The translations under genes and the position numbers were made by a program. Of a stretch of DNA of 64,000 nt, positions 3,888 to 55,895 are shown piece by piece. The notes below the pieces were generated by a model, which was not told the origin of the DNA, made no database searches, and worked only from the letters and a program-made list of their open reading frames with translations. The DNA is from a virus. Taxonomy: Duplodnaviria > Heunggongvirae > Uroviricota > Caudoviricetes. The number at the start of each line of letters is the position of its first letter. The first letter of the stretch is position 1. The stretch lies in the IMG/VR virus record IMGVR_UViG_2623620505_000001; one strand, 5' to 3'.

Positions 3888-3906
3888 AAGTGACTTTCAA
3901 TAAAAT
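3888..3906 (+). promoter_or_regulatory. putative Lpa-dependent late promoter (AAGTGACTT element + TAAAAT -10)
   Basis: Seen: AAGTGACTT tcaa TAAAAT upstream of the 575-aa late gene; same element+spacing recurs at 23298, 30250 and 43621(-). Inference that it is the late promoter type. Confidence 0.5.
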
Positions 3907-8756: not shown

Positions 8757-8767
8757 AAGGATTTTAT

Positions 8768-9277: not shown

Positions 9278-9296
9278 GAGTCATCCCTTGTATTTT

Positions 9297-9321
9297 AAAG
9301 CTCCTTCGGGAGCTTTTTTAT
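9297..9321 (+). terminator. rho-independent terminator
   Basis: AAAGCTCC ttcg GGAGCTTT stem-loop followed by TTTTTTAT. Confidence 0.8.
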
Positions 9322-9393
9322 TTGGAGAGGAAAGGGTGCATTGAGGATACCTGACACACGAAGAGTGGCGAGGATCTCTCCTCGCCAGGTCTC

Positions 9394-9549
9394 TTACCTT
9401 TCAGATTCGTAGGCTGTGAAGACAGTGACCTCCGTCTGGCCGGTTCGGATTCGTACCTCGCAGAGGTCTTTCCTCGTTACCAGTGCCGTCACAATGACGG
9501 TTAAACAGATGACGATCAGAGCGATTAATATCGCTTTTTGCTGCTTCAT
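9394..9549 (-). CDS. hok: Hok/Gef-family type I toxin (51 aa membrane peptide); not in supplied ORF track (below length cut-off)
   Basis: Translated by hand: MKQQKAILIALIVICLTVIVTALVTRKDLCEVRIRTGQTEVTVFTAYESER; C-terminal LTRK.LCE.R.R....EV..F.AYES matches Hok family; AGGAG RBS 9 nt upstream. Confidence 0.75.
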   Translation of the reverse strand: MKQQKAILIALIVICLTVIVTALVTRKDLCEVRIRTGQTEVTVFTAYESER

Positions 9550-9607
9550 AGCCTGCTTCTCCTTGACCTTTTGGTCGGTAAGAGGCTAATCTACGTATGC
9601 TAAGCAT
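9401..9607 (-). CDS. mok: mok-like overlapping reading frame (translational coupler of hok)
   Basis: 68-aa ORF overlapping hok in another frame, as in hok/mok/sok loci. Inference from arrangement. Confidence 0.4.
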   Translation of the reverse strand: MLSIRRLASYRPKGQGEAGYEAAKSDINRSDRHLFNRHCDGTGNEERPLRGTNPNRPDGGHCLHSLRI

Positions 9608-9730
9608 AGATATTGCCTCAGATTAATGTTAAGCGTCTTGCAGGACGCGTAATGTTATCTGGGGCTTTCTTCTATCTGCTTTTCGGGTAATGCCTGAAGC
9701 AGATAGCCTCAAGCACCCGCAACGATTGTA

Positions 9731-9976
9731 TCAATGTCTGGCTTTTTTTCTATAGAAATCACCTGGAAGGGTGAATATCCACATCAGAAGAAATGTTGCA
9801 GCAAACATGATCCCTAATGGCCAGACCGCGCCAAAGAAAATCCATACTAAGATCTTCTCTGCTTGTTCTTTGCGGTCGATATCGACAAGCATTTTTCGGC
9901 TGATCATGTATACACAGAAGCCAATACAAACATATCCTGCAAAAGCGATCGCTAACTGTAAAAAATCAGATTGCAT
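9731..9976 (-). CDS. small two-TM membrane protein (track ORF 9731..10057 trimmed to internal ATG because upstream part overlaps repL)
   Basis: Hydrophobic segments LAIAFAGYVCIGFCVYMI and ILVWIFFGAVWPLGIMFAATFLLMWIF. Confidence 0.4.
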   Translation of the reverse strand: MQSDFLQLAIAFAGYVCIGFCVYMISRKMLVDIDRKEQAEKILVWIFFGAVWPLGIMFAATFLLMWIFTLPGDFYRKKARH

Positions 9977-10026
9977 CTCCGACCTCAAACTGAAAACGCC
10001 AGGTAACTCCAGATTAGAGCAATCTA

Positions 10027-10872
10027 TCACCCTCTGAATCCTGCCGGTATACCCCATTGTTCGTTATCTTTATTTTTGGCTAAAACCGCATTAAGAGCTT
10101 CGTTTACCGTCATGCAATGCGGCAGATTATCGAAGTTTGATACCCCGCCAATATCAGGAGAACGCTTGTTCTTCAGGTAAGCATATTTCCGCGCTGCCGC
10201 CTCTACTTTCTGCTTGAACTCATGTTTTTGTGCGCGTTTTTTGGATAACCGCAGATTGTCAGCCTTTGCTTTTGTCTCAGCGATCCATGAAGTCAATTTT
10301 TTGAGTCTGATCGTTCCGGCACCGCCGGAAACTGATCTTTTTGTTTTTTTAACTTGTGACTTCTTATTCTTTATTGCCACGTCATCCTGACATGGGGAGG
10401 GGGTATCATTTTGACATGGGGGTGTGGATAAAAAATTAAATAAAGCCAATGTCTTAGCGAGAACAGCTTTAACCTTGGTTGCCGCTGAAGAGATCTTTAA
10501 TTTGCTTTCAATCAGCGCATTTTTGGCTTGTTGTGCGAAGGCCAAAAAGGATGGTGTAAACCGGTACAGGTTAGCGCGACGTTCACGGTGATCGCCGATA
10601 ACAATCTCTACAGATAGAATTCCTTTGTTTACAGCTTCACGGAATGCACGAACGACGGTTGATTGGCTATAACCAGTTTCTGCCGCGATCAGGCGGTGGG
10701 GCTTGTGAATGAAGTATTCACTGGTTGTTGCCGCGAGATTTGCACATTGCGACAGGATATGCCCGGCGCTACGGGATAGACCGGAGTGTGTTACAAAGAA
10801 GGCCAATTCATAGCCAGAAAAAGTAAAATCGCTCATCGTTATACAGCTCAGGAAAGTGACTTTAGCCAGCAT
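10027..10872 (-). CDS. repL: lytic replication protein RepL
   Basis: 281 aa (size of P1 RepL as I recall), downstream of kilA and of a C1-operator-like site, as in the P1 kilA-repL operon. Confidence 0.8.
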   Translation of the reverse strand: MLAKVTFLSCITMSDFTFSGYELAFFVTHSGLSRSAGHILSQCANLAATTSEYFIHKPHRLIAAETGYSQSTVVRAFREAVNKGILSVEIVIGDHRERRANLYRFTPSFLAFAQQAKNALIESKLKISSAATKVKAVLAKTLALFNFLSTPPCQNDTPSPCQDDVAIKNKKSQVKKTKRSVSGGAGTIRLKKLTSWIAETKAKADNLRLSKKRAQKHEFKQKVEAAARKYAYLKNKRSPDIGGVSNFDNLPHCMTVNEALNAVLAKNKDNEQWGIPAGFRG

Positions 10873-10901
10873 TACAATGCTGGTGGTTCTTACTACGTCT
10901 G

Positions 10902-11702
10902 TTAGCGCGTTGCCGCGACAGGTACCAGCACACCAGCATCAAGCAATCGCTTCATCAGCCACTGCTGACCTTTGCCGGTTATACGAGTCGTGAAAGAAAT
11001 CCTGCTTCCATTGCTTGTATCGATCACGGTTTCTTTAAGGGTGAAATACCCACGGGATATGTATTCTTGTTTGGGGACGTTCCTGCGTTCACCGGTTGCG
11101 ATCAGAATTCCGTTATCACGCAACCAGGTGAAGAGATAGTTTTGGCCCAGGCCGAGCACTTTGGCATAGTTGCCGATTAGAACCCCGCTGGCGGTAGCAA
11201 CGCGTTCGGCGAATTCGACTTTAGGTGCATCCATCAGCATTTTTTGCTCCAGCCGTTGCTTTTGCTCTGCCAGGTCAGCAGCCAAACGGAGAGCTTCTGG
11301 GAGGCTCTTCGGAATAGCAGGTTGTAATCTTCCGGCTCGATAGTCGATAAATGTCTGGTTTACCTTCAGCCGAAACGCGGGAGAAATCCAGCCTGCGTAC
11401 TCCACTGCGAGCAATTCATGGGCAAAAGTGCCGCCGCCACGGCCTTCGAACGAAACTATGCAATTCTGCATAGTCTCTTTTTCAAGCTCTTCGATGAGCT
11501 GTTTGGCTGACAGCGTTCTTAGCCATTGAGCTGGCGCTTTATGGGCACCGAGTCCGCTCGCTCTGTGTAGAGCATTAAGGTTGTAACGGCCAGCGCGGTC
11601 GGTCGTAATTTCAACACCACAAATAACGGGCAGAGTGGTTGAAGGATCGACATTTTGATGAAGGTTTGATATATTCATATCCGCATTGAATGTTTGTTGC
11701 AT
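10902..11702 (-). CDS. kilA: KilA (KilA-N domain plus antirepressor-type C-terminal domain)
   Basis: 266 aa; C-terminal 130 aa clearly homologous to C-terminus of neighbouring Ant (LPEALRLAA.LAEQK...GKGQQWL). Confidence 0.8.
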   Translation of the reverse strand: MQQTFNADMNISNLHQNVDPSTTLPVICGVEITTDRAGRYNLNALHRASGLGAHKAPAQWLRTLSAKQLIEELEKETMQNCIVSFEGRGGGTFAHELLAVEYAGWISPAFRLKVNQTFIDYRAGRLQPAIPKSLPEALRLAADLAEQKQRLEQKMLMDAPKVEFAERVATASGVLIGNYAKVLGLGQNYLFTWLRDNGILIATGERRNVPKQEYISRGYFTLKETVIDTSNGSRISFTTRITGKGQQWLMKRLLDAGVLVPVAATR

Positions 11703-11772
11703 TTTTTCTCCAAATTTGCATCAACCTTCAATCACCAGCTCGAAATGGTGATTCTTTGCACTTAGAAAACGA

Positions 11773-11789
11773 AATTTATTAGAGCAAAT
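11773..11789 (-). promoter_or_regulatory. C1 operator-like site upstream of kilA-repL
   Basis: Reverse strand reads TTTGCTCTAATAAATTT vs known P1 C1 operator consensus ATTGCTCTAATAAATTT. Confidence 0.65.
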
Positions 11790-11866
11790 TTTTCTGACTC
11801 GATCCAGATCGGGTTGGACGATCTGCTCAGAAACCTGCCAGTTTGCTGGCAGGTTTTTTTCTTTTG

Positions 11867-12901
11867 TTAACCTATTGCTACTGGTTTTAACAAACCAGCA
11901 TCAAGTAGCTTGCGAGTTAACCACTGCTGGCCTTTACCCGTTAATTGTGGCGTCAGCCGTATCTGATAGCCATTTTCATCATCCAGCACCACTTCTTTCA
12001 CCGTGAAATACCCGGCGTTAATGTACTGCTGGCGCGGTACGTTTTTGCGCGCACCAAAAGCCATGAGAATGCCGTTCTGGCGCAACCATGAGAAAAGGGC
12101 GTTTTGCTTAAGTCCAACGACCTTTGCAAAGTTACCGATCAGGATTCCATTAGCCACTGATACCCGGTCGGCAAAATCGACTTTAGGTGCTGCGGCCACC
12201 AGCTGTTGTTCCAGATGCATTTTCTGTTCTGCCAACTCGGCAGCCAGGCGTAGGGCTTCTGGTAATGTTTGGGGGATCGATGGGGTAGGGGAGTTTGCCT
12301 GCTGTAATTCTTCCAGTTTGTCGATCAGCGAACGGCGGACCGCTTTTGACTCGCGCGCGGCAACTCGCAGGGCTTGTTTGTAGGTCATGGTTATAATATC
12401 TATTTCTGCGCCGTTTTTTTGACCTACGAAAATTTCGTAGGTTTCTCCTTCAAGCTCATCCTTAACTCTGGCAATGAAATCATTGTTGCGAACTGGTTTT
12501 TCGCTACATAATTTCCGTGCCTCATTGACCATCTTCAACAATGTTTGGCTGTCGATTGTGTCTCCGGTGTTGGGGATGACATTCAGGGCTGGTGCTGGCG
12601 TAGCTGAAGCAACAGGTGCTGGTTTTTCAACATTTAAATTATTACCGGTCATTCTATGTGCCTCCTTTCTCATTTCTGCTGCCACTGTTGCGTAACGTAG
12701 ACGTCCTTGTTCAATCAAATAATCCCTGATCTCGGCTATCAGTAGCCTGTTGATCACAGCCTTATCTGTTCGGGTATAAAAACGCCTGGTTATCATGAAA
12801 TAGTTGGCAATTGCGCCGGGGATCTCCCGTGTCGGCATACAGATTGTATGCAAGGCGATCGCTTCGGCTATTTCATTACGGGTGACGAGAGGTGTTTTCA
12901 T
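11867..12901 (-). CDS. ant1: antirepressor Ant (Ant1; in-frame internal start may give Ant2)
   Basis: 344 aa downstream of icd; shares C-terminal domain with KilA; immI gene order icd-ant. Confidence 0.8.
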   Translation of the reverse strand: MKTPLVTRNEIAEAIALHTICMPTREIPGAIANYFMITRRFYTRTDKAVINRLLIAEIRDYLIEQGRLRYATVAAEMRKEAHRMTGNNLNVEKPAPVASATPAPALNVIPNTGDTIDSQTLLKMVNEARKLCSEKPVRNNDFIARVKDELEGETYEIFVGQKNGAEIDIITMTYKQALRVAARESKAVRRSLIDKLEELQQANSPTPSIPQTLPEALRLAAELAEQKMHLEQQLVAAAPKVDFADRVSVANGILIGNFAKVVGLKQNALFSWLRQNGILMAFGARKNVPRQQYINAGYFTVKEVVLDDENGYQIRLTPQLTGKGQQWLTRKLLDAGLLKPVAIG

Positions 12902-13119
12902 AAACCCCCCTGAACGTCGGCAGAGAAGGGGAGGCTCCAGTAACTAAGTGAATTGCGCGAGTTAGTTGAAAAACGGGCAGTAAAAATGCAGGGGCCATCA
13001 GGCAATTGAGAGCGTGCTTCGTCTTCTGTTGCTGCGATAACGAAGTGATAGTGGTGTTTTTTACAGGAATAGAAACGCCAGATGAATTCTTGGCGTGCGC
13101 AAGGATTGGCATTAACCAT
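12898..13119 (-). CDS. icd: Icd (cell-division inhibitor, immI leader ORF)
   Basis: 73-aa ORF overlapping ant start; size and position as P1 icd. Confidence 0.6.
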   Translation of the reverse strand: MVNANPCARQEFIWRFYSCKKHHYHFVIAATEDEARSQLPDGPCIFTARFSTNSRNSLSYWSLPFSADVQGGL

Positions 13120-13129
13120 AGTTACGGCC

Positions 13130-13330
13130 TCACTAACAGGTTTAACAACCTGCTACCCGCTGCTAAACAGGTGGCAGGACGTGACGGGGTTAGCAGACTG
13201 GCGTTAGTGAAACCAGCAGGCCGAAGCCTCCCCATCACGCCCCACCATAATTTGGGCGTAACGCGGTTTTACGGACACAAAAATACCGCAATATCGGATA
13301 TCTGCGGTTGTCCGCACTAACATTCAGGCT
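13130..13330 (-). ncRNA. c4: region expected to encode c4-like antisense repressor RNA (exact ends not determined)
   Basis: Known: in P1 c4 RNA lies between the operator-controlled promoter and icd. Seen: operator-like site at 13434-13450 and repeated CTGCTAAC/TAGCAG complementary elements. Boundaries are inference. Confidence 0.3.
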
Positions 13331-13433
13331 GCTAAACCCGGTCGCAGAATTTGCTACGACGGCGGAACTATAAGCCTGAACGATTAAAAGGTCAATATGA
13401 TGCGAAAAGATAGCATTCGCGACTTAAAAATAC

Positions 13434-13450
13434 AAATTTATTAGAGCATT
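13434..13450 (-). promoter_or_regulatory. C1 operator-like site at immI promoter
   Basis: Reverse strand AATGCTCTAATAAATTT (1 mismatch to consensus). Confidence 0.65.
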
Positions 13451-13546
13451 GTGTGCTTAATAAATACACAATTGGATCTAATAACCTCTTTTTTTTAAAG
13501 GCGAAAATATGTACCCTAAATGAGTTATAAGGCAGGTGAGGTTATA

Positions 13547-14194
13547 ATGAGAAAACTATTACTACCGTTATTATTTATGGCTGGGACTGTTAATGCAGCA
13601 TCAAGCGTAAAGGAGATTTGTACCGATTATACGAAATACCTTGGGCACGTTTACGGCTTTGCTGTCAGTCAAGACGAATCCATGCGCAAGAAGTTACTGT
13701 CAGATATGAAACGCCTTAAACTTTCTGAAGCGATGGTGCAGCAAGAACTGTATAAAGTCGCAACCAACGAAAATGCTAAATATCAATATTCTCGCCTGTT
13801 AAATCCCGACGCAAACGAGATCAATCGAAGCTCTTTCGATTATATGGTAAAGGCATGCGAAACCGCTCCTGATTTTGCTATTCCTAGCTGGGGTGTGCTG
13901 GTGGCGAGCAATGCCGTTAATAAAGAAGACGTTGGAAGAAATGGCATTGACTCAATCAGAAATGCCCCTGGAATGCGCCATCAAAACGTGCAGGGTACGC
14001 TTGAAGAGCGGGCCAGGGGGCCGGGTACAAACTCCCCAATGGGAAACCTCTCACCAGAGGAATTGCAAGAGTATAACCAACGGATGGAGCAGTATGAGAA
14101 AGCGGCACGCGAACAAATGGAACAACAAAAGAACGGCTCACTTAATACCTTTCAGCAAGGTTTAAAAGCGCTTAATTTACCATATGAATGGTAA
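13547..14194 (+). CDS. secreted protein with signal peptide; candidate superinfection-exclusion (Sim-like) protein
   Basis: Track ORF 13520..14194 trimmed to ATG at 13547 with GGTGAGG RBS; signal peptide MRKLLLPLLFMAGTVNA; shares PGMR..VQGTLEERAR motif with Sit. Sim assignment is positional inference. Confidence 0.5.
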   Translation: MRKLLLPLLFMAGTVNAASSVKEICTDYTKYLGHVYGFAVSQDESMRKKLLSDMKRLKLSEAMVQQELYKVATNENAKYQYSRLLNPDANEINRSSFDYMVKACETAPDFAIPSWGVLVASNAVNKEDVGRNGIDSIRNAPGMRHQNVQGTLEERARGPGTNSPMGNLSPEELQEYNQRMEQYEKAAREQMEQQKNGSLNTFQQGLKALNLPYEW

Positions 14195-14255
14195 ATATAT
14201 TATGGATAACCAATTAAAATATTGATAATCGTTAATATCCAAAGGAGATAAATTA

Positions 14256-14732
14256 ATGCGCATCAAACGATTTTTTCTAATTCTTGCTTTGCTTACTCCA
14301 TTTTCATCAATGGCAAATGTAAGCAAATGGTCAACCGGCGAGACTCATGGTGTTCGTTCTTATGCTGTTTCCAGCAAAGATAATTATACGCTTACATTTG
14401 AGTGCGATGTTGGATTTAATAATACGGATCCCAATCAAGTAGGAACACGACTACTCACTCTCATGAAAACAGAACCTGGCGGTGAGTCATTTGATGCTAA
14501 AAAAGAACAAATAACGCTGAAAGTTGGTGATGATGAATATCCTATAAGTTCTATCGGTTCCTCTGTGGGTGATAGTTACTGGTATGGTTTTTGGTCAGAT
14601 ACCCCTGATATGGAAGTAAAAACATTCGATGCATACGTAGACGGAAAAAAAATTGCAACATTTACGCTACGTAAGGCCGCAGAGCTTTTCAACGCGGCAC
14701 CTGAAGATGGCTGCCTGAAGCGCGCAAAATGA
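14256..14732 (+). CDS. secreted protein (signal peptide MRIKRFFLILALLTPFSSMA)
   Basis: 158 aa, strong RBS AAAGGAGA, cleavable signal peptide. Confidence 0.5.
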   Translation: MRIKRFFLILALLTPFSSMANVSKWSTGETHGVRSYAVSSKDNYTLTFECDVGFNNTDPNQVGTRLLTLMKTEPGGESFDAKKEQITLKVGDDEYPISSIGSSVGDSYWYGFWSDTPDMEVKTFDAYVDGKKIATFTLRKAAELFNAAPEDGCLKRAK

Positions 14733-14766
14733 CCTGTCACAAATGACTACTCGTAGAATCGGTTAA

Positions 14767-15357
<591 letters not shown>

Positions 15358-15367
15358 GGGGGCTGAT

Positions 15368-15979
15368 ATGGGGCTTAATGTTGCTTCAGTAAAGTCTTAT
15401 GTATCTTCGGCATTAACGACGACATTATTTGGCTCCGGCGTTGGTGAGCGGGAAGTTGGCAAGCTGACGTCAATCATCATGAACAAAATGCTGTTCGCGC
15501 AAGGATGGCAGTTCTCTGTCGAAGTTGATGGTCTGGAGGGGGCAGACTTCTTTGCTAAAGACATTACCTACCACGATTACAGCATCGAATATGAAACGAT
15601 TAAAATCGGCGGAGGGAATATCCTTCAGCCAACGGAGCGTTCGCCTGGGCAGATAACAATGATGGTCAGGGATACCGTTGATGGCCTCGTTTTGGACTGG
15701 TTTAAGACGGCAAAAAGTCGGGTGATCAATCCGGACGGTACCGGGAATATACCGTCTAAATATTTGCTCAATGTGCGTATTTATCGGTTGCTGTCCTCCG
15801 GTTTAACCAAACTGGAAAATGAGATGACGGTATTCCCGGTCACTACCGGCGATGTCACCTATGCGCGGGATCAGGTTACGGAATTTAAGTCATTCCCAAT
15901 GACCTTCGCGTTGCACAGCACGTTTAACCAATCCTCAAGTTCTTTAGCTTCCCTTCTGGGCTTTAGTTTTTCGCTTTAA
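15368..15979 (+). CDS. hypothetical tail-module protein
   Basis: 203 aa, translationally close-packed in the block. Confidence 0.45.
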   Translation: MGLNVASVKSYVSSALTTTLFGSGVGEREVGKLTSIIMNKMLFAQGWQFSVEVDGLEGADFFAKDITYHDYSIEYETIKIGGGNILQPTERSPGQITMMVRDTVDGLVLDWFKTAKSRVINPDGTGNIPSKYLLNVRIYRLLSSGLTKLENEMTVFPVTTGDVTYARDQVTEFKSFPMTFALHSTFNQSSSSLASLLGFSFSL

Positions 15980-15993
15980 ATTAAGGAGCAAGG

Positions 15994-16875
15994 ATGCTTT
16001 TACCCCTTTTCCCGCTACCATCGCGGCCAACTGAATTAATCCAGTTCCGTCAGCCAAATATTGCTGATGCGATGCGTTTCAACTCGATAACACCGGAGGA
16101 ACAAGAACAGCAGACAACAGCGTATTTAAAAGCCTTGCTGGCTGAAGCTGCGAAACATGATCCACTGAAATGGACGGCACAGGACCGGATTACCGCGTTA
16201 TGGTGGATATTTACTGGCTCCCGCGAAACACCGATCGAGACATTTACCTACACCTGTAAACATTGCGGTAAAGAGCATTATTACGATTGCGATATGAATG
16301 CTCTGGCTGAAGATATCCAGGTCCTGGAAGTGGAACCGTTCATTGACGATATTGAGGTGTCTGTAGAGGGCGTGCCTTATCAATGGCGTATCGTGCCGCT
16401 TGATGGTTGGGCAATGGAAATGCTGGAGATGCGCCGAGCAGCATTGCCACCTGAAGACGACGCGGAATTCAAAGAAGCGATCGTTGATTTGCGTTTTTGG
16501 GAATTCGCTTATCAGTGTGAACTTTATAACGATGTTAGCGGTACTCGTGAAGAGCAGGCTGAGCGTCGTTATGAAACGATCAAACGGATGGCCATTGATA
16601 CTGAATTTATGAAGCTGGCGGCACACATCCGGCTGGCTCATGAAAAGCTCGAACATGGTTTACCGTGCTACATCGATAAAGGCGAAATGCGTCTTCGTCT
16701 CCCGCCGCACAAATGCCCAAACCAGGATACAAAGGAGTCCACAGAGGGTGCGTATACCCGTCTGTGGGTGCCCTTTCGGGCTACCGACTTCATTCCACAG
16801 GTGGGGATTGAAAAGCTATCAGACCTTAGTGTCCAACCTGGTTTTGTATGGGGGTATACCGATTCAGGACGCTGA
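15994..16875 (+). CDS. hypothetical tail-module protein
   Basis: 293 aa ORF preceding sit. Confidence 0.45.
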   Translation: MLLPLFPLPSRPTELIQFRQPNIADAMRFNSITPEEQEQQTTAYLKALLAEAAKHDPLKWTAQDRITALWWIFTGSRETPIETFTYTCKHCGKEHYYDCDMNALAEDIQVLEVEPFIDDIEVSVEGVPYQWRIVPLDGWAMEMLEMRRAALPPEDDAEFKEAIVDLRFWEFAYQCELYNDVSGTREEQAERRYETIKRMAIDTEFMKLAAHIRLAHEKLEHGLPCYIDKGEMRLRLPPHKCPNQDTKESTEGAYTRLWVPFRATDFIPQVGIEKLSDLSVQPGFVWGYTDSGR

Positions 16876-16956
16876 AAGGCTTACTGAATCCTATGCGTTT
16901 TTCCTGTTGGAGAAACTGGAAGAAAAACTTAAACCGAAACGGTAGGCGATAAGATC

Positions 16957-19900
16957 ATGGAAAGAAAAAACGCCAATATTGACGATGTTATAAGGACAGT
17001 TGAAACCGCCAGCGCGAAAGAGCTGGAAGAGCTTGCAGGTATTCGGGAAGCTGTTGAAGATTTGAAAGGGGAACGAGTTGCAACTGTTGATCCTGTCTCT
17101 CGCAGTGTGTCGGCATTAAATCGCACAATCGAAAATTCACGTCCTGACTTTGTGACCAATGTGCCATCAGTGGACTCTATTGTTGACGCAATGAAACGGC
17201 TTAATTTAGGGGACGTTTCTCGTATACGGGAGGACAAAGTCACTAACCGTGAACAGCAGGCTGCACCAACAGCGCACAATCCCCCAAATAGACGAAGAGA
17301 GGCAATAACAGAGGATGTTAAAGCACAGCGGTTAGAAACGGTCAAACTCGCTCGTGATTTGAAAGGGGAACGCGTTGCAACGGTTGACCCAGTATCTCGC
17401 AGTGTGTCGGCATTAAATCGAACAATCGAAAATTCCCGGCCAGACTTTGTGGCCAATGCGCCATCAGTAGACCCTATTGTTGACGCAATGAAACGGCTTA
17501 ATTTAGGGGACGTTTCTCGTGTAGTTCAGGAGGGCATTGCTCAACAGGAACAGCAGGCCAAATCAACTACACCAAAGGGTAAAAAAAGACGCAGGAAGGC
17601 TATATCAGAGGATATAAAGGCACAACGGACCGAAGCAGCCGAACACGCTCGCGAAATGTTCGATCAAAAAGGCGGTGCGCAAAAAAGCCAAAACCAACGC
17701 GATGCGCGTGGTCGTTTTATTGGAAAGTCAGGGAGTAAGGCCGCAGCGGAAGATGCCCGTGCTGAACGTGCTGAAAAGGCCAGGCGCAAAGAGGATGATG
17801 AGCGTCTAAATGCTGAATCAGGTTTATTAAAAAAACTGTCAAAAGTAGCTGAAGGCATAGGTAACCCTTCAGAGACTCGTGCCGTCGATGCGTTAGGTTA
17901 TGCCGTTGCTGGTCCATTGTGGGCAGCAGGGAAGGAGCTTGGCGGGATATCAAAAGAAGTTGGTGGATCGCTTAATGGCGCCAGAAAGTCTATTGCCGAT
18001 GTGATTCGTGGCAATGACGATAACAGCCGTAGAAAAGGTTTTTTTAGGCGTAAATCGCAAAATAGTGCCGATGTCGTTCAGGTTAACACCCAAAAACGGA
18101 CGGTTCAGGAACTTCAGGAGCAGACCAGCGAAATTAAAGAGGGCAATGACAAGATTCTCAGCGCCCTTGATCAGATAGCCAAAAACACCGGGAAAAAGAA
18201 GGGCGGCTTGCTGTCCAAACTATTTAGCCTGTTAGGGAAGGGGGCCGGTGGCGTCGCGTCGTTGTTAATGGGGCGTGGCATGCTGAAAAAAGCTGGAGCA
18301 CTCGCTTTTGGCGCTCTGGGGGCAAAGAAACTTGTAGGAATGCTACGCGGTGGTGGCAAGAAGACTATCGCCCATGAAGGTGGAGATTTGGCTGCCCGGG
18401 CAGCAGGTAAATTTGGATTAAAGGCAGTTGGTAAAGGGGCGTTACGCGCAATTCCCTTAGTCGGCACAGTGGCTGGAGGTATTTATGATGCGGTAACCGG
18501 TTGGAATGATACAGAAGCGCAACGTCGAGCGTTTGGGCTTAAATCAGGACAAGAGCCATCATTCCAGCAAAAAGCCGCTTATACGTTAGCCAATGTTCTT
18601 GATATGGGGGGACTGGTATCTGGTATTAGCAGCGCCATTGGTGAGGTTCTCAAATCACTTGGATTTGAGGATATCGGCAATATGTTGCAATCATTTTCGA
18701 CGGAAAGTATTGCCCAGGCCATTGATAGTGGGATTACCAACTTAGAAACATATATTTCTAACCTTGGCGACACCATTTCTACCAAGTTCGAAGATTACAC
18801 AGCAAAGATTGGTGATGCTGTTTCAGCATGGTTTAGCGATACATCTAATAAGCTGCTTGAAAAGCTGGATGCCATCAAAGACTTCTTTACTGTTGATAAC
18901 CTGAAACAGGTTTTCAGTGATGCAATTGATAGTGCAATTGATTTCATTAAGAACCCAGGGAAACACATTAAAGAGGCGGCTGGTAATATTTGGGATGGGG
19001 TTAAAAATTTACCTGGTAAAGCATTAGATGCAGCGGTTGATGCCGTTAAAAATACCCCTGCGGCAATGATTGTATCAAAAATACCCAATCCGATCGGCGA
19101 GGCTAATGCGAAAGAAATCACTCCGGAGTTAAAAGCTCCGGTTAATAGCCACCAGGAGACGTCTGATTCTAAAACTGAATCCGATGCCAAACAGAGTAAT
19201 ATTGCTACCCGCGTGATAAATGCGGCACTGGACACAGCGAAAGATAGCAATAAAACAGTTAAACAAACTGCTAATCAGATTATCAATGCAAATGCCGTAG
19301 AAACGGGCAATAGCGCGTTGCAGAAAATTGATAAAGCTATTGGTCAAAATAGCTCGTCATCATCGTCGCTTAATACCACTGGCACCAGGAATGACATTCA
19401 GAAAGCTGCGGATACTTACAACAATGGCAACTTAGATGTAAAAGTCGGAAGTCTTGGCGCTGAAGGTAAGGCAAATCTCGATAAGTTGGCTCCGTATTTT
19501 GCCGAACTAGAGAATAAATACGGTCTTCCAGAAGGCACTCTTTACGCGATTGCTGCAACTGAATCTGGTGGTAATCCGTATGCAAAATCCCAAACCGGTG
19601 CTCTGGGGATGTTTCAGTTCACGGGGATTGCTCGTGAAGAGACTGGCTTAGCTGAAGGTGAATCGTTTGATCCTGTGAAATCGGCAGAAGCTGCGGCTCT
19701 TCTCATGAGCAAGTATCTTAAGCAAGCCAATGGAGACTTAAACGAGGCCATCACTGCATATAATGCTGGGTTTGGCACTATTAATAAGTGGAAAAAAGGC
19801 ACCGGTGACTTATCGAAAGAAAACCGTGAGTACGCGATCAAGGTCAATACTCATCGTGCTCGCTATTTAGGTGGTGAAATCTATACACCTGGAGCAGGAG

Positions 19901-23297: not shown

Positions 23298-23316
23298 AAG
23301 TTACTTATCTTACAAT
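23298..23316 (+). promoter_or_regulatory. putative late promoter for R-S tail-fibre operon
   Basis: AAGTTACTT atct TACAAT, same element/-10 architecture as at 3888. Confidence 0.45.
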
Positions 23317-23346: not shown

Positions 23347-23781
23347 ATGTCTGACGTCTCAACAAACCTCTATAAGAGTCAGTTGTTGGACTATTACTAT
23401 CAGCGGCGCGCTGAATCGTCCATTAACAAAGGCTCTCGATTTTTAATCAGCAAGGCCGTTTTCGGTACCAGTTCACTGGTTACTAAGAAAGGAGATGGCA
23501 CTTATGAGATTGGAGAACTGCCAAAGGCTTTCGATCTGGCAGAACTGACCAGTCAATTTTGCACCATCAACCTCGTCCCAACCTACTCAGGCGGGATAAT
23601 TACTGTCCGAATGGACCTTGATCAAAGTCAGTTGCAGGAAGGGAAAAACTACCCATTCAACACTCTGGTTGTTCTGGATAACGAGAATAAGCCAATCGCC
23701 ATTATTTGTGTCCAGGAAGACTCGCTGTATGTGGGCAAAACATATACCGCAGTTATGGCCATAAACTCGACTACAGCATAA
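23347..23781 (+). CDS. R: tail-fibre operon protein R
   Basis: 144 aa immediately upstream of S; by position. Confidence 0.5.
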   Translation: MSDVSTNLYKSQLLDYYYQRRAESSINKGSRFLISKAVFGTSSLVTKKGDGTYEIGELPKAFDLAELTSQFCTINLVPTYSGGIITVRMDLDQSQLQEGKNYPFNTLVVLDNENKPIAIICVQEDSLYVGKTYTAVMAINSTTA

Positions 23782-23792
23782 GGATATGCTTG

Positions 23793-25811
23793 ATGAATGA
23801 CGTTACAGTTGTTACATCGGTTACTTACCCATCACCCGAGTCGTTGGCTCTGGTGGCTGATGTGCAATACCACGAACCATATCTGTCAGCCGCTCTAAAC
23901 CGAAAATTCAGGGGAATTGTTGACCCGGGATTTTATGCTGGTTTCTTGCCTAAGCCTGGCGGTGGGATGAACCTGTTAATCACCTCAGTGGATGGAGATA
24001 AAACCGCTGGCGCGGCGTCAGTGGATATTGGTGAATTCTACCAGGTAACTATTCAGCATCGTAAGGATATCTCTCTTGCACTTAACGCAGGCAAGAAATA
24101 TGCAATTGTGCTGAAGGGAAGATACCTTCTTGGAGAAGATACCTATCAGGTGAATACCGCGTCACATATTCATGCAGCTGAATTTGTTGCCAGAACCTAT
24201 ACCGATTCATATCAGTTAGGTGATGGGGAACTGCTGGTTTGTACGGTGAATATCCCTGCTGGCGTATCTACCATTACTCAAGAGATGATTGATACATCCG
24301 AGCGTATCAACCGCACGATCGGCATTGATATTTCAGACTCTGTAACCAGTACCAGAAGTGATGTTGCTGCGAGTTCGCTGGCAGTTAAAAAAGCCTACGA
24401 TCTGGCGAAAAGCAAGTATACGGCGCAGGATGCAAGCACAACGCAAAAGGGATTAGTTCAGCTCAGTAGTGCCACTAACAGTACGTCCGAAGTGCTGGCC
24501 GCCACACCGAAAGCTGTCAAGGCTGCATATGACCTGGCTAACGGGAAGTATACAGCCCAGGATGCAACCACGACACAAAAAGGGATAGTTCAGCTCAGTA
24601 GCGACACCAACAGCACTTCTGAAACATTAGCTGCAACGCCAAAAGCGGTTAAAGCTGCATACGATCTAGCAGCCGGAAAGGCACCATCCAGTCATACACA
24701 TCCCTGGAATCAGATCACTGGTGTGCCAACAGCTTCATTGACAGCGAAAGGCATCACTCAGCTCAGTAGTGCCACTAACAGCACGTCTGAAGTGCTGGCC
24801 GCCACACCGAAAGCTGTCAAGGCTGCATATGACCTGGCTAACGGGAAGTATACAGCCCAGGATGCAACCACGACACAAAAAGGGATAGTTCAGCTCAGTA
24901 GCGACACCAACAGCACTTCTGAAACATTAGCTGCAACGCCAAAAGCGGTTAAAGCTGCATACGATCTAGCAGCCGGAAAGGCACCATCCAGTCATACACA
25001 TCCCTGGAATCAGATCACTGGTGTGCCAACAGCTTCATTGACAGCGAAAGGCATCACTCAGCTCAGTAGTGCCACTAACAGCACGTCCGAAGTGCTGGCC
25101 GCTACACCGAAAGCTGTCAAGGCTGCATATGATTTGGCTAATGGAAAGCAAGCGGCAGACGCTACGCTCACTGCTCTAGCGGCACTAGCTACCGCAGCAG
25201 ATAAACTCCCTTATTTCACAGGGGTTGATCGTGCCGCGTTAACTGCACTGACAAGTGTTGGACGTGCAATTCTTAGTAAGCCCAGTATTCAGAGCGTTCT
25301 TAATTACCTTGGTTTAGGGGAAGGCTCGGCGCTGCCCGTTGGTGTACCTATTCCATGGCCCTCAGCCACACCGCCAACGGGGTGGCTGAAATGCAATGGT
25401 GCAGCATTTTCTTCTGAAAAGTACCCAAATCTGGCAAAGGTTTACCCAACGTTAAAATTACCTGATTTACGCGGTGAGTTTATCCGTGGCTGGGATGATG
25501 GGCGAGGGATTGACTCTGGTCGCTCTATTTTAAGCGAGCAAGGATATGCAACGGAGGATCATGCTCACGGATTACCGTCAAAATCAACCGTAGCAACTGA
25601 CCGCTCAATTAATTTCTACTTTGACGAGGCATGGGCTACTAGTGGTAATACGGGAGTTATCAGATGGGGGAACACAAACGATGCAGGATTGCCAGCCCCT
25701 AATTATGGAACTTTTAAAACATATAAACAGTCCGTAGCTAATTTAGGTACTGCTGGCTTAGAAACCCGCCCTCGTAATATTGCATTTAATTATATTGTGA
25801 GGGCGGATTAA
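23793..25811 (+). CDS. S: tail fibre protein S (constant part Sc fused to currently expressed variable C-terminus)
   Basis: Track ORF 23706..25811 trimmed to ATG 23793 with AAGGA RBS. Repeated LAATPKAVKAAYDLA tail-fibre repeats; C-terminus ...ETRPRNIAFNYIVRAD shared with the silent cassettes. Confidence 0.85.
   Translation: MNDVTVVTSVTYPSPESLALVADVQYHEPYLSAALNRKFRGIVDPGFYAGFLPKPGGGMNLLITSVDGDKTAGAASVDIGEFYQVTIQHRKDISLALNAGKKYAIVLKGRYLLGEDTYQVNTASHIHAAEFVARTYTDSYQLGDGELLVCTVNIPAGVSTITQEMIDTSERINRTIGIDISDSVTSTRSDVAASSLAVKKAYDLAKSKYTAQDASTTQKGLVQLSSATNSTSEVLAATPKAVKAAYDLANGKYTAQDATTTQKGIVQLSSDTNSTSETLAATPKAVKAAYDLAAGKAPSSHTHPWNQITGVPTASLTAKGITQLSSATNSTSEVLAATPKAVKAAYDLANGKYTAQDATTTQKGIVQLSSDTNSTSETLAATPKAVKAAYDLAAGKAPSSHTHPWNQITGVPTASLTAKGITQLSSATNSTSEVLAATPKAVKAAYDLANGKQAADATLTALAALATAADKLPYFTGVDRAALTALTSVGRAILSKPSIQSVLNYLGLGEGSALPVGVPIPWPSATPPTGWLKCNGAAFSSEKYPNLAKVYPTLKLPDLRGEFIRGWDDGRGIDSGRSILSEQGYATEDHAHGLPSKSTVATDRSINFYFDEAWATSGNTGVIRWGNTNDAGLPAPNYGTFKTYKQSVANLGTAGLETRPRNIAFNYIVRAD
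24461..25140 (+). repeat. 300-bp tandem duplication inside S (2.3 copies, near-perfect)
   Basis: Seen: 24541-24780 identical to 24841-25080; unit encodes 100 aa of tail-fibre repeats. Confidence 0.9.
25297..25322. other. mix/cix-type 26-bp inversion crossover site 1 (at Sc/Sv junction, opposite orientation to sites 2-6)
   Basis: Reverse complement TTCCCCTAAACC AA GGTAATTAAGAA; resembles known gix/hix half-site pattern TTCC..TAAACC. Confidence 0.75.
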
Positions 25812-25816
25812 TTATA

Positions 25817-26428
25817 TCAACTGGCTGTAGAAAGTTGTTTTTCAGGCCAGTTGAGATCTGGTGCCGTGGTTAAATCCATCGCGTTCAGCTCGTCTATATA
25901 ATCTAGCACGGAGTTAAGCTGCGTGGTTTCTGCCTGCGTCAACTTCCGTCCAGCCCGTAATTTCAACTGAATCAGACTAATGGAATCCATCGCAGTATCA
26001 ATCAATGACTGACGTTTTGTTTCTGCTGCCTCTACAGCTGCACTATGTTGAGCCTCAGTATCAACCACCCATTTCTCTCCATCCCATTTGTCGTATGGTG
26101 TTAGCGGGGCGATAGTGGTTGTATTTTCCGGATAGTCACCCAACACCGTGATTTCTTCGGGATTCCCAGTGTCAATGCTATAGACAGTTTCGCCACGATG
26201 ATCTGGCACATACTCCCATGAACTTAAATCCTCTGAACGGAGAATCGCATAACCTGCTTTATGTGAGCCTGGAGCATCCAAACAAGAATTTGCCGGAATA
26301 CCAACGCCAACAGCAAGATATTCAGTTGATGCAGAAATATATTCCCGATTACCACCATCATAGTTATAAACGATAATGTTTCCTGCCTGTATGGCTATAA
26401 GTTCGCTATTTAATATCGCATTATCCAT
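25817..26428 (-). CDS. U: tail fibre assembly protein (U/Tfa family), inverted relative to S
   Basis: 203 aa; C-terminus ...LNAMDLTTAPDLNWPE resembles Tfa C-terminal motif; start overlaps stop of cassette B. Confidence 0.8.
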   Translation of the reverse strand: MDNAILNSELIAIQAGNIIVYNYDGGNREYISASTEYLAVGVGIPANSCLDAPGSHKAGYAILRSEDLSSWEYVPDHRGETVYSIDTGNPEEITVLGDYPENTTTIAPLTPYDKWDGEKWVVDTEAQHSAAVEAAETKRQSLIDTAMDSISLIQLKLRAGRKLTQAETTQLNSVLDYIDELNAMDLTTAPDLNWPEKQLSTAS

Positions 26429-26886
26429 TATGCTGCTCTCACAATATAATTGAAGGCAATGTTACGTGGGCGGGTTTCATTCCCCCCAGATAACTCCGTT
26501 CTGTATTGACTGGTAAATTTACCATTAATCGCTCCTTGCCGGACGGCGTTATCTGTCGACAACAGACTATCCCCCCCTCTGTCATTTGGCACCAATACCG
26601 TGTTATCCCACGCGTCCCATGACCGAATATTATGATAATGACTTCCTGTTAACCACCCCTGTATGCTTAAGATGACCCTTCCCGCATCCACACCTCGCCC
26701 ATCATCCCAGCCACGGATAAACTCACCGCGTAAATCAGGTAATTTTAACGTTGGGTAAACCTTTGCCAGATTTGGGTACTTTTCAGAAGAAAATGCTGCA
26801 CCATTGCATTTTAGCCAGCCCGTTGGTGGTGTTTCTAAGGGCCACGGAACGGGCACACCAACAGGCAGTGCAGAGCCTTCCCCCAA
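26428..26886 (-). other. silent alternative S C-terminal cassette B (promoterless; followed by U)
   Basis: Encodes GEGSALPVGVPVPWP...ETRPRNIAFNYIVRAA with unique central region; 5' end is mix site 2. Confidence 0.8.
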
Positions 26887-26903
26887 ACCAACGTTTTTAT
26901 GTG
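26878..26903. other. mix site 2
   Basis: TTCCCCCAAACCAACGTTTTTATGTG. Confidence 0.75.
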
Positions 26904-27370
26904 GCCCTTACAATGTAATTAAAAGCAACGTTGCGGGGGCGCATTGATATCCATGCCCCGGTAAAATTATCCTCTGCCGTCCTTTGAGTGCCTGTTATGG
27001 AGTTATCTGATGATGCTAGAACATAATCGCTATTATCTCCTGCTTTAGGATTAGCAGGGTTTCCAACAGTTATAACAGAATCAGCAGTAGCATAAGCGAT
27101 ACCTACTTTGACATTAGTAGTCAGATCGACACCGTAATAATCCTGCAAAGCTGTACGAATAAATGTTGCAGTCTGACCACTTAGCAATGAACGCCCTGTA
27201 TCAATCCCTCTCGAATCATCCCAACCACGGATAAACTCACCGCGTAAATCAGGTAATTTTAACGTTGGGTAAACCTTTGCCAGATTTGGGTACTTTTCAG
27301 AAGAAAATGCTGCTCCGTTACATTTCAGCCACCCCGTTGGTGGTGTGGCGGAGGGCCACGGAACAGGCAC
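26897..27370 (-). other. silent alternative S C-terminal cassette C (reading frame continues to mix site 3 at 27392)
   Basis: 157-aa ORF with conserved N/C ends; identical to cassette at 28376-28849. Confidence 0.8.
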
Positions 27371-27391
27371 ACCAACGGGCAGCGCCGAGCC

Positions 27392-27417
27392 TTCCCCTAA
27401 ACCAACGTTTTTATGCC
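27392..27417. other. mix site 3
   Basis: TTCCCCTAAACCAACGTTTTTATGCC; overlaps stop codon of next cassette. Confidence 0.75.
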
Positions 27418-27878
27418 GCCCTTACGATGTAATTAAATGCAATATTACGGGGGCGGGTTTCAGATGCTGTACGAACTGAGCGAGAGGCGTCGAATGTCCA
27501 GTTATAAGAGCCATAACCCTCAATAATTTCCGTTTCCTTTAGGCCTGTAGATAATACTTGACCATGTTGACTAAATGGCCCTGAACTAAGTACATCTCTA
27601 AAAAGCTGAGTACGCCCGAAAGAACCAACAATATTCTGAATTGCATCATTCTGTGCAGATAATAAATTACGGCCAGAGTCAATCCCCCGCCCGTCATCCC
27701 AGCCGCGAATAAATTCGCCCCGTAGATCCGGCAATTTATTAGTAGGGTAAACCTTTGCCAGATTTGGGTACTTTTCAGAAGAAAATGCTGCACCATTGCA
27801 TTTCAGCCACCCCGTTGGCGGTGTGGCTGAGGGCCATGGAACAGGTACACCAACGGGCAGTGCCGAGCCTTCCCCCAA
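27411..27878 (-). other. silent alternative S C-terminal cassette D
   Basis: 155-aa ORF, conserved ends, distinct core. Confidence 0.8.
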
Positions 27879-27895
27879 ACCAACGTTTTTATGCC
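27870..27895. other. mix site 4
   Basis: TTCCCCCAAACCAACGTTTTTATGCC. Confidence 0.75.
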
Positions 27896-28365
27896 GCCCT
27901 TACGATGTAATTAAATGCGATATTTCGTGGACGGGTTTCACTCCCGCCAGTATTACCAATACTCCCTCGAGAATGAAGTGTCGGTGATGGAATCAAATTC
28001 CCTCCTGTATTTGAGGCATCAAGCCCCCGTCCTTGTGTGTATGTTTTTTTGAAAATTGTCGCCAGCTCCCATTCATCTTTTGTGTCGTAACCATCATTGG
28101 CTACAACAATATGTCGGTGCTTTTCCAGCATTCCTGTCTGAATGCTCAATAAAGCACGTCCCGCATCCACCCCGCGCCCATCATCCCAGCCGCGAATAAA
28201 TTCTCCCCGTAAATCCGGTAATTTATTGGTGGGGTAGGCCTTTGCCAGTTTGGGATACATTTCAGAAGAAAATGCTGCTCCGTTACATTTCAGCCACCCC
28301 GTTGGCGGTGTTTCTAAGGGCCACGGAACGGGCACGCCAACGGGCAATGCTGAGCCTTCCCCCAA
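27889..28365 (-). other. silent alternative S C-terminal cassette E
   Basis: 158-aa ORF, conserved ends, distinct core. Confidence 0.8.
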
Positions 28366-28382
28366 ACCAACGTTTTTATGTG
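28357..28382. other. mix site 5
   Basis: TTCCCCCAAACCAACGTTTTTATGTG. Confidence 0.75.
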
Positions 28383-28849
28383 GCCCTTACAATGTAATTA
28401 AAAGCAACGTTGCGGGGGCGCATTGATATCCATGCCCCGGTAAAATTATCCTCTGCCGTCCTTTGAGTGCCTGTTATGGAGTTATCTGATGATGCTAGAA
28501 CATAATCGCTATTATCTCCTGCTTTAGGATTAGCAGGGTTTCCAACAGTTATAACAGAATCAGCAGTAGCATAAGCGATACCTACTTTGACATTAGTAGT
28601 CAGATCGACACCGTAATAATCCTGCAAAGCTGTACGAATAAATGTTGCAGTCTGACCACTTAGCAATGAACGCCCTGTATCAATCCCTCTCGAATCATCC
28701 CAACCACGGATAAACTCACCGCGTAAATCAGGTAATTTTAACGTTGGGTAAACCTTTGCCAGATTTGGGTACTTTTCAGAAGAAAATGCTGCTCCGTTAC
28801 ATTTCAGCCACCCCGTTGGTGGTGTGGCGGAGGGCCACGGAACAGGCAC
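28376..28849 (-). other. silent cassette C-prime (exact duplicate of cassette C)
   Basis: Predicted protein identical to 26897..27370; DNA identical over about 538 bp. Confidence 0.8.
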
Positions 28850-28870
28850 ACCAACGGGCAGCGCCGAGCC

Positions 28871-28896
28871 TTCCCCTAAACCAACGTTTTAGTCTT
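28871..28896. other. mix site 6 (outermost, next to invertase gene)
   Basis: TTCCCCTAAACCAACGTTTTAGTCTT. Confidence 0.7.
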
Positions 28897-28950: not shown

Positions 28951-29523
28951 ATGCAAATTGGCTACATTCGTGTGTCAACAAATGACCAAAACACAGATTT
29001 ACAAAGAAATGCACTGAATTGCGCAGGATGTGAACTGATTTTTGAAGATAAAATAAGCGGAACAAAGTCAGCCAGACCAGGCTTGAAAAAGCTGCTCAGA
29101 ACGTTATCAGAAGGAGATACGCTGGTTGTCTGGAAGCTGGATAGGCTTGGCAGAAGTATGAAACACCTTATCACGCTTATAGAGGAGTTGCGGGAAAAAG
29201 GTGTTAATTTCCGTAGTCTGACAGACAGTATTGACACATCAACACCCATGGGGCGTTTCTTTTTTCATGTCATGGGTGCTTTAGCAGAAATGGAACGTGA
29301 ATTAATTGTTGAGAGAACACTGGCCGGACTGGCAGCTGCACGCGAACAGGGACGCATTGGCGGACGTCGCCCGAAGTTGACAAAAGAACAACATGAGCAA
29401 ATAGCGAGGTTGATCGAAAATGGCTACAGCAGGAAACAGTTGGCAATTATTTACGATATCGGTGTATCGACGATTTATCGTTATCATCCTGTAGAGAAGC
29501 GCCAAACTCAATCTGAGCTGTAA
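28951..29523 (+). CDS. cin: serine DNA invertase (Cin/Min/Gin/Hin family)
   Basis: Track ORF 28942..29523 trimmed to ATG 28951 (AAAGAGG RBS); N-terminal catalytic motif IGYIRVSTNDQ, C-terminal HTH; adjacent to the inversion sites. Confidence 0.9.
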   Translation: MQIGYIRVSTNDQNTDLQRNALNCAGCELIFEDKISGTKSARPGLKKLLRTLSEGDTLVVWKLDRLGRSMKHLITLIEELREKGVNFRSLTDSIDTSTPMGRFFFHVMGALAEMERELIVERTLAGLAAAREQGRIGGRRPKLTKEQHEQIARLIENGYSRKQLAIIYDIGVSTIYRYHPVEKRQTQSEL

Positions 29524-29958
29524 TTCTAATGCCGCGTCGGTGTAATTTATCTTGATAGAATAGGTACATTTATCGCGCGGCACATCAATTCGATGTATCT
29601 AGCGCCTGCTGACCGCTAATGAAAACTGTTCTCGAAATGTTGTCCCTAGTCCGAGACTAGGGTATCACCTCTGGAAAGCATACGCAGAACCTTTTTTAAC
29701 CCAGGGTGCCCAGTTTTTTTGCTGCTCGCCTTATTCGCAAAAATTAGCTCACATCCTGCGCTTTCAAGTGCTTTTCACTGCATAGCTGTGTTTTGTTCAT
29801 TTGTCTATATGCATACATAGCCTATTAACATATTTTCTGCCCACTATCGTTATTTATTGCAAGCTACAGGTTTTAATTAACAAAACCAGTGTGTGTGGAA
29901 ATCACAAAGTGCATACCGTTCTCAAATGTTGTTCAACTTACTGTTGTATAGGTAAAAA

Positions 29959-30222
29959 ATGACATTTTATGTACATATCGTGATGTTATCCCTTCTTGGT
30001 GGGGTGTATTCGTATTTGAGTGGGCTATGTGAAAACCGTTACGAGTCTTCATGCAAGAAATTGCTGGCCGAATGTATTTCCGCCGTACTTGCTGGCTTTA
30101 TTGGCATGTATCTCGCGGAATATAAGGACATGAATGAAAGCCTTCAGAGCTGCATGGTTCTTATTTTCAGCGCCAATAGCAGGCTTATTATTGAAGGTTC
30201 CAAAAGTCGGTTGAATAGGTAA
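29959..30222 (+). CDS. small hydrophobic protein (possible lysis-associated)
   Basis: 87 aa with two hydrophobic segments, in AT-rich region between invertase and lysis genes. Confidence 0.35.
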   Translation: MTFYVHIVMLSLLGGVYSYLSGLCENRYESSCKKLLAECISAVLAGFIGMYLAEYKDMNESLQSCMVLIFSANSRLIIEGSKSRLNR

Positions 30223-30249: not shown

Positions 30250-30268
30250 AAGTTACTTTGCATACCAT
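30250..30268 (+). promoter_or_regulatory. putative late promoter for lysis/dar operon
   Basis: AAGTTACTT tgca TACCAT about 30 nt upstream of the GTG start with AGGAGGG RBS. Confidence 0.4.
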
Positions 30269-55861: not shown

Positions 55862-55895
55862 ATAACTTCGTATAATGTATGCTATACGAAGTTAT
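55862..55895. other. loxP: loxP recombination site
   Basis: Exact 34-bp ATAACTTCGTATA ATGTATGC TATACGAAGTTAT. Confidence 0.97.

Follow-up and report, generated by a model that had tools for sequence, protein, structure and literature searches.

The stretch of DNA considered here, 64,000 nucleotides (nt) of the IMG/VR virus record IMGVR_UViG_2623620505_000001 (referred to as the window), is part of a P1-like phage-plasmid, its R, S, lyd and baseplate genes being 95-100% identical to those of P1, P7 and many IncY-type plasmids. To judge by its sequence, the tail fibre locus of this element is a Min multiple DNA inversion system of the p15B type, a type already known, in which the fibre gene S is followed by an array of alternative 3' ends and the only gene for a tail fibre assembly chaperone, tfa, is carried within the invertible DNA. 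The locus opens with the Lpa-dependent late promoter LPs (23298-23316, plus strand), a perfect match to the late-promoter motif, with the -22 palindrome AAGTTACTT, a spacer of N4 and the -10 element TACAAT; it is the counterpart of the LPs annotated in P1, and all P1-like relatives have it. LPs drives the operon formed by the constant tail fibre structure/assembly gene R (23347-23781, plus strand; phrog_2032), 100% identical to the R of relatives, and S (23793-25811, plus strand). The latter is an intact open reading frame (ORF) of 672 amino acids (aa), consists of a constant part and tip cassette A, exactly matches the deposited protein AJF59414.1, and contains Phage_fiber_2 repeats as well as a Collar domain at aa 517-564. 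Cassette A (25310-25811, plus strand), the variable 3' end of S, encodes a collar resembling those of gp12 and gp37 and a head with an HxH motif. It is convergent with tfa (25817-26428, minus strand), so that the stop codons of S (25809-25811) and tfa (25817-25819) face each other 5 nt apart. The 203-aa product of tfa is an exact match to the Swiss-Prot entry TFAB_ECOLX and belongs to phrog_105 (E = 1e-92); residues 78-197, the conserved C-terminal domain, match Caudo_TAP (PF02413, E = 3e-30) with 105 bits against a cut-off of 22.1. On its other side, the ATG of tfa overlaps the stop of silent tip cassette B (26428-26890, minus strand) as TAATG. A preceding sequence-only reading of the window had placed the end of S at 25811 and had described the sole Tfa-like gene (25817-26428) as inverted and coupled to cassette B; the ORFs and the TAATG overlap bear out every one of these coordinates.

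Beyond B follow four more silent tip cassettes on the minus strand, namely C (26897-27404), D (27411-27882), E (27889-28369) and F (28376-28883). Each silent cassette opens with a crossover site: mixB (26878-26903), mixC (27392-27417), mixD (27870-27895), mixE (28357-28382) and mixF (28871-28896). Together with the site inside S (25297-25322, plus strand; TTCTTAATTACC and GGTTTAGGGGAA on either side of the central TT), this gives six 26-bp mix sites, at 25297, 26878, 27392, 27870, 28357 and 28871, of which only that in S is oriented on the plus strand. All six have in common the core AC(C/G)TTGGTTT(A/G)GGGGAA with its central TT; at the silent cassettes the site takes the form (N)5AAAACG-TT-GGTTT(A/G)GGGGAA, inverted with respect to the S site. 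Cores of the AAACCNNGGTTT type are enriched, with eight found and 2.2 expected. The site within S also marks the start of inverted repeats of ~230 nt that connect S with every silent cassette. The invertible DNA, whose right end is formed by F, measures 3,574 bp and comprises four single-ended segments, with one cassette each, and one double-ended segment, in which A and B face each other with tfa between them. Cassette F is a duplicate of C: segments 26891-27404 (C) and 28370-28883 (F) form 514-bp direct repeats of 100% identity, which continues for another 18 nt on the left and 7 nt on the right. These repeats are also a ready substrate for a RecA-mediated deletion of 1.5 kb.

Downstream of the array lies min (28951-29523, plus strand), which encodes a Din-family serine DNA invertase (PF00239, 2e-51; PF02796; Resolvase and HTH_7 domains; phrog_125) exactly matching Q05517_ECOLX. 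Over its first 120 nt, min has 88% identity to the 5' region of P1 cin that holds the annotated recombinational enhancer, and a corresponding enhancer is predicted here. The gene is followed by psi-win (29655-29831, minus strand), a truncated invertase pseudogene with 61% tblastn identity to Min and in-frame stops. It keeps the upstream and 5' region of P1 cin at ~85-90% identity (alignment 29560-29960) and points at min and the invertible DNA. The next late promoter, LPdar-like (30250-30268, plus strand), reads away from the inversion region.

Inversion was simulated in silico by cutting at the central TT, with recombination permitted only between oppositely oriented sites, and the products were followed by breadth-first search. 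Starting from the present isomer, all possible inversions involve the site in S and turn tfa into the sense orientation. Each of the five single inversions leaves S in frame, with products of 659-674 aa that cover every cassette, and tfa then lies on the S strand at -1, 468, 982, 1460 and 1947 nt from the S stop. This agrees with the earlier claim that a single tfa is common to all cassettes and comes into sense only after an inversion at the S site. The search reached 240 isomers, tfa being in sense in 120; since C and F are identical, the six cassettes amount to five distinct tips and the isomers to 120 distinct sequences. Tip A is fused to S in 24 isomers, none of which has tfa in sense, and tip B in another 24, all of which do. 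Each of tips C, D, E and F is expressed in 48 isomers, and tfa is in sense in 24 of these. No mix site separates A, tfa and B, and their relative arrangement is therefore fixed; because A and tfa are convergent within one invertible segment, tip A can never be expressed together with a co-oriented tfa. A co-oriented tfa directly downstream of the tip that it serves exists for cassette B, and is missing for the expressed tip A. The orientation asymmetry of tfa is thus built into the whole system and is not specific to the present isomer. The sequence-only reading had remarked that the current isomer lacks a co-oriented tfa; this extends to all 24 isomers with tip A, but it is no peculiarity of A, as C to F lack it in half of their isomers. 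The silent cassettes have possible TTG (26886, 27878, 28365) or GTG (27370, 28849) start codons on the minus strand, at or just past the mix sites. In isomers with tfa in sense, the intervening cassettes might be translated as free tip fragments of ~150 aa, which could limit polarity on tfa.

A second source of Tfa was sought with phmmer on six-frame ORFs (E <= 10) using five queries (this Tfa, U and U' of P1, and two other Tfa proteins) in addition to the profile. Neither the 64-kb window nor the complete 97-kb relative NZ_MG288678, whose annotation lists one tfa, yielded a further Tfa-like ORF; the separate U-like ORF that the sequence-only reading allowed it might have missed was thus found in neither. 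The product of R, gpR, carries the label 'tail fiber assembly protein' in both RefSeq P1 and PHROGs, yet it is no Tfa/U homologue: it has no similarity to Caudo_TAP and occurs alongside U in P1.

Promoters from which tfa might be transcribed were looked for with a late-promoter motif, AAGTNACTT-N4-TANNNT, that was derived upstream of R and confirmed on LPs and LPdar as annotated in P1. With at most one mismatch, the motif occurs in the 23-31-kb region just at 23298 and 30250, perfectly and on the plus strand in both cases, and between 23317 and 30239 neither strand holds a match with up to two mismatches. Likewise, no late promoter lies in or faces into the invertible DNA in 13 relatives (at most one mismatch), and none of the Lpa type is found on the minus strand to the right of the region up to 43.6 kb. 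A consensus-only scan for sigma-70 promoters, which may miss weak or unconventional ones, returned nothing above 9/12 and fewer matches than shuffled sequence. One 9/12 match (CTGGCA-N16-TAAAAT) lies inside B on the minus strand, from 26769 to 26742, in the correct orientation and 315 nt upstream of tfa. The psi-win remnant is not supported as an inward promoter: the predicted cin -10 element, TAAAAT in P1, now reads TAAAAC and has lost its final invariant T. Terminator prediction gave none on the plus strand from the S stop to min, and an Rfam scan of 23.0-30.5 kb gave no match. In these scans the sequence lends no support to expression of tfa irrespective of orientation. Since no late promoter other than LPs reads across the region and no separate promoter was detected for tfa, this gene would be transcribed solely at the distal end of the R-S transcript.

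P1, Mu, P2 and T4 cannot do without their Tfa/U chaperones. How far the tips of the window depend on Tfa can be approached through their relatives, for which 169 collar-type tips, drawn from 86 loci, were clustered by their variable parts. Every tip type of the window occurs elsewhere directly upstream of a co-oriented tfa that overlaps it (TAATG or TGATG). For the A type, such coupling is seen in loci L034, L041 and L045, in which the variable region has 77% identity and tfa is ~78% identical to that of the window. D-type tips are coupled in L031 (variable region 95% identical), E-type tips in many loci (up to 97%), C/F-type tips in L079 and L066 (79-91%), and B-type tips in all multi-cassette loci. 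The N-terminal domain of Tfa, which binds the fibre (PMC9608196), is 74-83% identical to that of the window in these loci regardless of tip type; as it does not diverge with the tip, Tfa is better seen as a general partner than as a B-specific one. All tips comprise a common collar block and a C-terminal ETRPRNIAFNYIVRA strand, and A, B and E have the HxH motif of the head in common, which argues against A being structurally exceptional. Searched against the PDB, tip A matches collar regions, namely those of the solved short tail fibre 9cuy (1e-16), T4 gp37 (2xgf, 1e-15) and gp12 (1ocy); the same sequence search with Tfa gave no match. In P1 itself, U scores as essential in a CRISPR interference screen (PMC10695390). 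The pairing of all tip types with near-identical Tfa N-terminal domains, the likeness among tips and the essential role of U in P1 together favour a generic Tfa that would serve all cassettes, and make it unlikely that A needs no chaperone. One branch of the sequence-only reading, according to which the expressed tip folds unaided, is disfavoured by the A-type tips coupled to tfa.

The module composed of the A variable part, tfa and the B variable part is present in at least 95 plasmid records at 80% coverage or more, 83 of them at an identity of at least 99%, and the A-tfa junction (GGCGGATTAATTATATCAACTG) is identical in all P1-like relatives examined. The multi-cassette loci, found via the Tfa protein, all carry a module of the form tip>tfa><tip, and all except L017 have a single tfa. 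In a second lineage with the same module, Tfa has ~83% identity and the convergent cassette is an E-type tip; this lineage resides at least partly in P2-like prophages, and its invertase is 96-97% identical. In one of its members, L023, the baseplate/fibre genes and the sheath/tape-measure genes each form an operon (8406-12704, 12788-18363), and L017 has the same ORF layout. In these P2-like hosts the sheath/tape-measure operon lies on the opposite strand and converges on the invertible region, so that late transcription could enter from both sides, unlike in the P1-like backbone. L017 (8076-11152) contains two tfa modules and was considered as a two-tfa variant. In it the modules abut in head-to-head orientation where two cassette 5' ends overlap; mix recombination cannot generate such a junction, and L017 is therefore probably an assembly chimera of a population mixed for segment orientation.

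Segments do permute in nature, as near-identical relatives differ in segment order and orientation and have different tips fused to S. Among 24 loci in which the orientation can be read, tfa is in sense in 12 and antisense in 12. Other tips are expressed with tfa antisense in L001, L088 and L090; tfa is in sense but lies several cassettes downstream of S in L003 and L091, and is coupled directly, as S-B-tfa, in L009 and L089. The A-expressing isomer occurs independently in L007. The number of cassettes ranges from 4 to 17 in otherwise near-identical plasmids, with several exact duplicates (e.g. L003, NZ_CP135665.1 1527-10485, and L089, NZ_CP098199.1), and the array evidently expands and contracts. 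Two virion-derived records, vB_EcoM-673R5 and vB_EcoM-813R1, were examined as guides to productive isomers, but their fibre regions are fragmented and frameshifted.

With moderate confidence, we favour the reading that tfa is transcribed solely as the distal part of the LPs-driven R-S late transcript, that Tfa is consequently phase-variable, and that the window represents an A-expressing isomer with Tfa switched off. The serine invertase would recombine the mix site in S with any oppositely oriented mix site, so that the constant part of the gene is joined in frame with one of the six 3' tip cassettes, and tfa would enter the late transcript only when its segment stands with the B end first. 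Tfa would then be on in 120 of the 240 isomers: in all that express B, in none that express A and in half of those for each of C to F. Because all tip types normally travel with this Tfa and chaperones are essential elsewhere, isomers with Tfa off would most likely assemble few or no functional fibres, unless Tfa were supplied in trans by sister genome copies already flipped or by a resident prophage with a tfa ~80% identical. The flipping of such copies could be helped by late read-through from S into the co-oriented min, which could raise invertase levels during lytic growth; P1 differs in this respect, as its cin is convergent with S. On this account the A isomer would be a low-yield or standby state that is one inversion away from five Tfa-on states.

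Several points weigh against this account, above all an evolutionary one. If productive bursts were halved, the arrangement would not be expected to last in two phage backbones and some hundred plasmids; that the single-tfa layout has remained unchanged despite the strong counter-selection expected hints that orientation may matter little. A weak or unconventional promoter, such as the 9/12 match in B, or read-through on the minus strand may furthermore supply tfa in either orientation. Finally, fibres that do not depend on a chaperone have a precedent, as that of Alteromonas phage A5 works without its cognate chaperone and retains a 'cap' chaperone (PMC10579305).

If tfa were expressed sufficiently in either orientation, or were supplied by flipped sister copies, all 240 isomers would be productive. 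The sequence-only reading had offered a choice between fibres made without Tfa and a non-productive state, and it is this third option, Tfa from an unrecognised promoter or in trans, that it left out. We consider it fairly unlikely. The stable conservation of the layout and the 12:12 ratio of natural isomers are what neutrality would predict. Hidden sources could be a promoter inside cassette B or at a mix junction, or leftward transcription from the side of min and psi-win. The match within B is correctly oriented, but it reaches just 9/12, lies in conserved coding sequence and belongs to a class of matches that is rarer than in shuffled sequence; psi-win retains the P1 cin promoter region facing the invertible DNA, but its -10 element is without the invariant T. 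As for leftward transcription, the P2-like hosts of the module have a convergent late tail operon facing the region, but the window has no Lpa-type late promoter on the minus strand to the right of the region up to position 43.6 kb. Moreover, any weak sense transcription of tfa in the A isomer would be opposed by late transcription from LPs, which crosses the gene in the antisense direction. Supply by flipped copies is helped by the lack of a predicted terminator between the S stop and min, which means that Min could rise late; against it stands that Din-family inversion is slow in Mu and P1. A further reading, also unlikely in our view, holds that the gp12-like collar tips trimerise without Tfa and that Tfa is an accessory, be it a tip-bound cap, a co-adhesin or a chaperone for B only. 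The A isomer would then make normal Tfa-free fibres, and tfa orientation would modulate assembly without gating it. This would suit the physical and translational tie of tfa to B alone and the persistence of the layout without a second tfa. It sits badly with the essential role of U in P1 and with T4 gp37, the collar region of which resembles the tip, and which needs gp38, replaceable by lambda Tfa. It is equally at odds with the simple two-state prophage loci, where A-, D-, E- and C/F-type tips are each overlapped by their own tfa. Yet in Mu and Ur-lambda Tfa remains attached to the completed fibre, where contact with the receptor is possible, and the Alteromonas fibre mentioned above functions without its cognate chaperone (PMC10579305, PMC9608196).

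Closely related, and in our estimation improbable, is the idea that tfa orientation is a deliberate second switch on top of tip choice, with fibres that carry Tfa differing in receptor use or capping from those that do not. If so, A would always be Tfa-free, B would always come with Tfa and C to F would occur in both forms, raising the number of phenotypes from 6 to 10 (8 here, as C equals F), or else infectivity would be gated as a standby. The least credible explanation is a private defect or an assembly artefact, in which A has lost its own tfa by deletion or the invertible region has been mis-assembled. The homology of the 3' ends of A and B stops exactly at TAAT, where the start of a tfa would be, which would fit an ancestral loss, and assemblies of such regions can be chimeric, as L017 illustrates. 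Nevertheless, the identical A-tfa junction in the P1-like relatives examined, with 83 plasmids at 99% identity or more, and the independent A-expressing isomer in L007 speak against an event private to the window. All junctions of the window also obey the grammar of mix sites, and the S ORF is intact and agrees with the deposited protein. The conservation data effectively refute this explanation.

Assignment of the locus to the p15B Min type follows from the exact UniProt matches of its Tfa and invertase (TFAB_ECOLX and Q05517_ECOLX), from the presence of psi-win and from the 99% identity between the equivalent region of a sister plasmid and p15B min (Zhou et al., PMC5786510). In common with p15B of E. 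coli 15T-, studied by Sandmeier, Iida, Arber and co-workers in 1990-1992, the locus has a constant 5' part of S and six 3' ends, R with a late promoter upstream, and min with a truncated psi-win downstream. Two of the six cassettes are identical here, in which it differs from p15B. The p15B system was reportedly described by Sandmeier et al. in 1990 and 1991 as having six crossover sites, 3.5 kb of invertible DNA, 240 isomers and psi-win. Its S protein is reportedly 739-762 aa long, and set against that figure the proteins encoded here (659-674 aa) have a constant part with fewer repeats. This constant part contains a 300-bp tandem duplication (99% identical) at 24458-25057, with sub-repeats of 132 and 168 bp that encode the Phage_fiber_2 repeats, and S ranges from 504 to 949 aa in annotated records of relatives. 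The architecture has been known since 1990-92, and what is gained here is a correct reading of its built-in asymmetry. In the accessible literature on P1-like phage-plasmids, which did not cover the original p15B papers, no discussion of the problem of tfa orientation was found.

Other inversion systems resemble the locus in part. The C-segment of P1 with Cin and the G-segment of Mu with Gin likewise switch host range by means of a Din-family serine invertase and a crossover site inside S; their invertase genes have an enhancer in the 5' coding region, of which min would carry a counterpart, and the R-S late operon with LPs is also found in P1. These systems nonetheless have two sites and two states. 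Each Sv in P1 is followed by its own U, as the sequence-only reading had maintained and the P1 layout (Sv-U, Sv'-U') confirms, and the chaperone is therefore co-oriented in both states. Their tips are of another type, without collar cassettes. In P1, cin is convergent with S, whereas here min follows S and is read in the same direction. The locus cannot be assigned to this two-state type, since it has six sites and six cassettes for a single tfa. The P-segment of e14 with Pin and simple collar-tip loci of E. coli prophages come closer, having the same tip type, the same Tfa family (~80% identity), the overlapping TAATG junction and a related invertase (79-97% identity). They differ in being two-state systems in which tfa and a divergent tfa' (32-40% identity) lie convergently between the tips, so that each tip has a chaperone (e.g. 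L002). In the R64 shufflon, multi-site inversions by Rci join a constant 5' part to alternative 3' ends, which encode the C-termini of pilV, and some segments have two convergent ends. The shufflon, however, uses a tyrosine recombinase, acts on the adhesin of a conjugative pilus and has no embedded chaperone gene; a system of this type, with Rci acting on sfx sites, is ruled out here because the recombinase is a serine resolvase/invertase.

The issue that remains is how one invertible chaperone gene serves six tips. This is a regulatory question within a known kind of system, and its interest is moderate. E. coli, Klebsiella and Salmonella commonly harbour P1-like phage-plasmids equipped with this Min module, some of them with mcr-1 or extended-spectrum beta-lactamase genes, so that the host range of these elements affects the spread of resistance. 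If the supply of Tfa depends on orientation, the particles released by half of the isomers in a lysogen population would have defective fibres, which would bear on estimates of transfer rates, on the engineering of host range with these cassettes and on the reading of 'silent' isomers in assemblies. If Tfa is dispensable or modulatory, the locus would show that in nature a chaperone can serve as an optional part of the fibre.

For P1, 11 late promoters have been reported, and the count in the window is in line with this number: three perfect matches to the late-promoter motif (3888-3906, 23298-23316 and 30250-30268, all on the plus strand) and seven more with one mismatch. The window also contains a canonical loxP site (ATAACTTCGTATAATGTATGCTATACGAAGTTAT) at 55862-55895.

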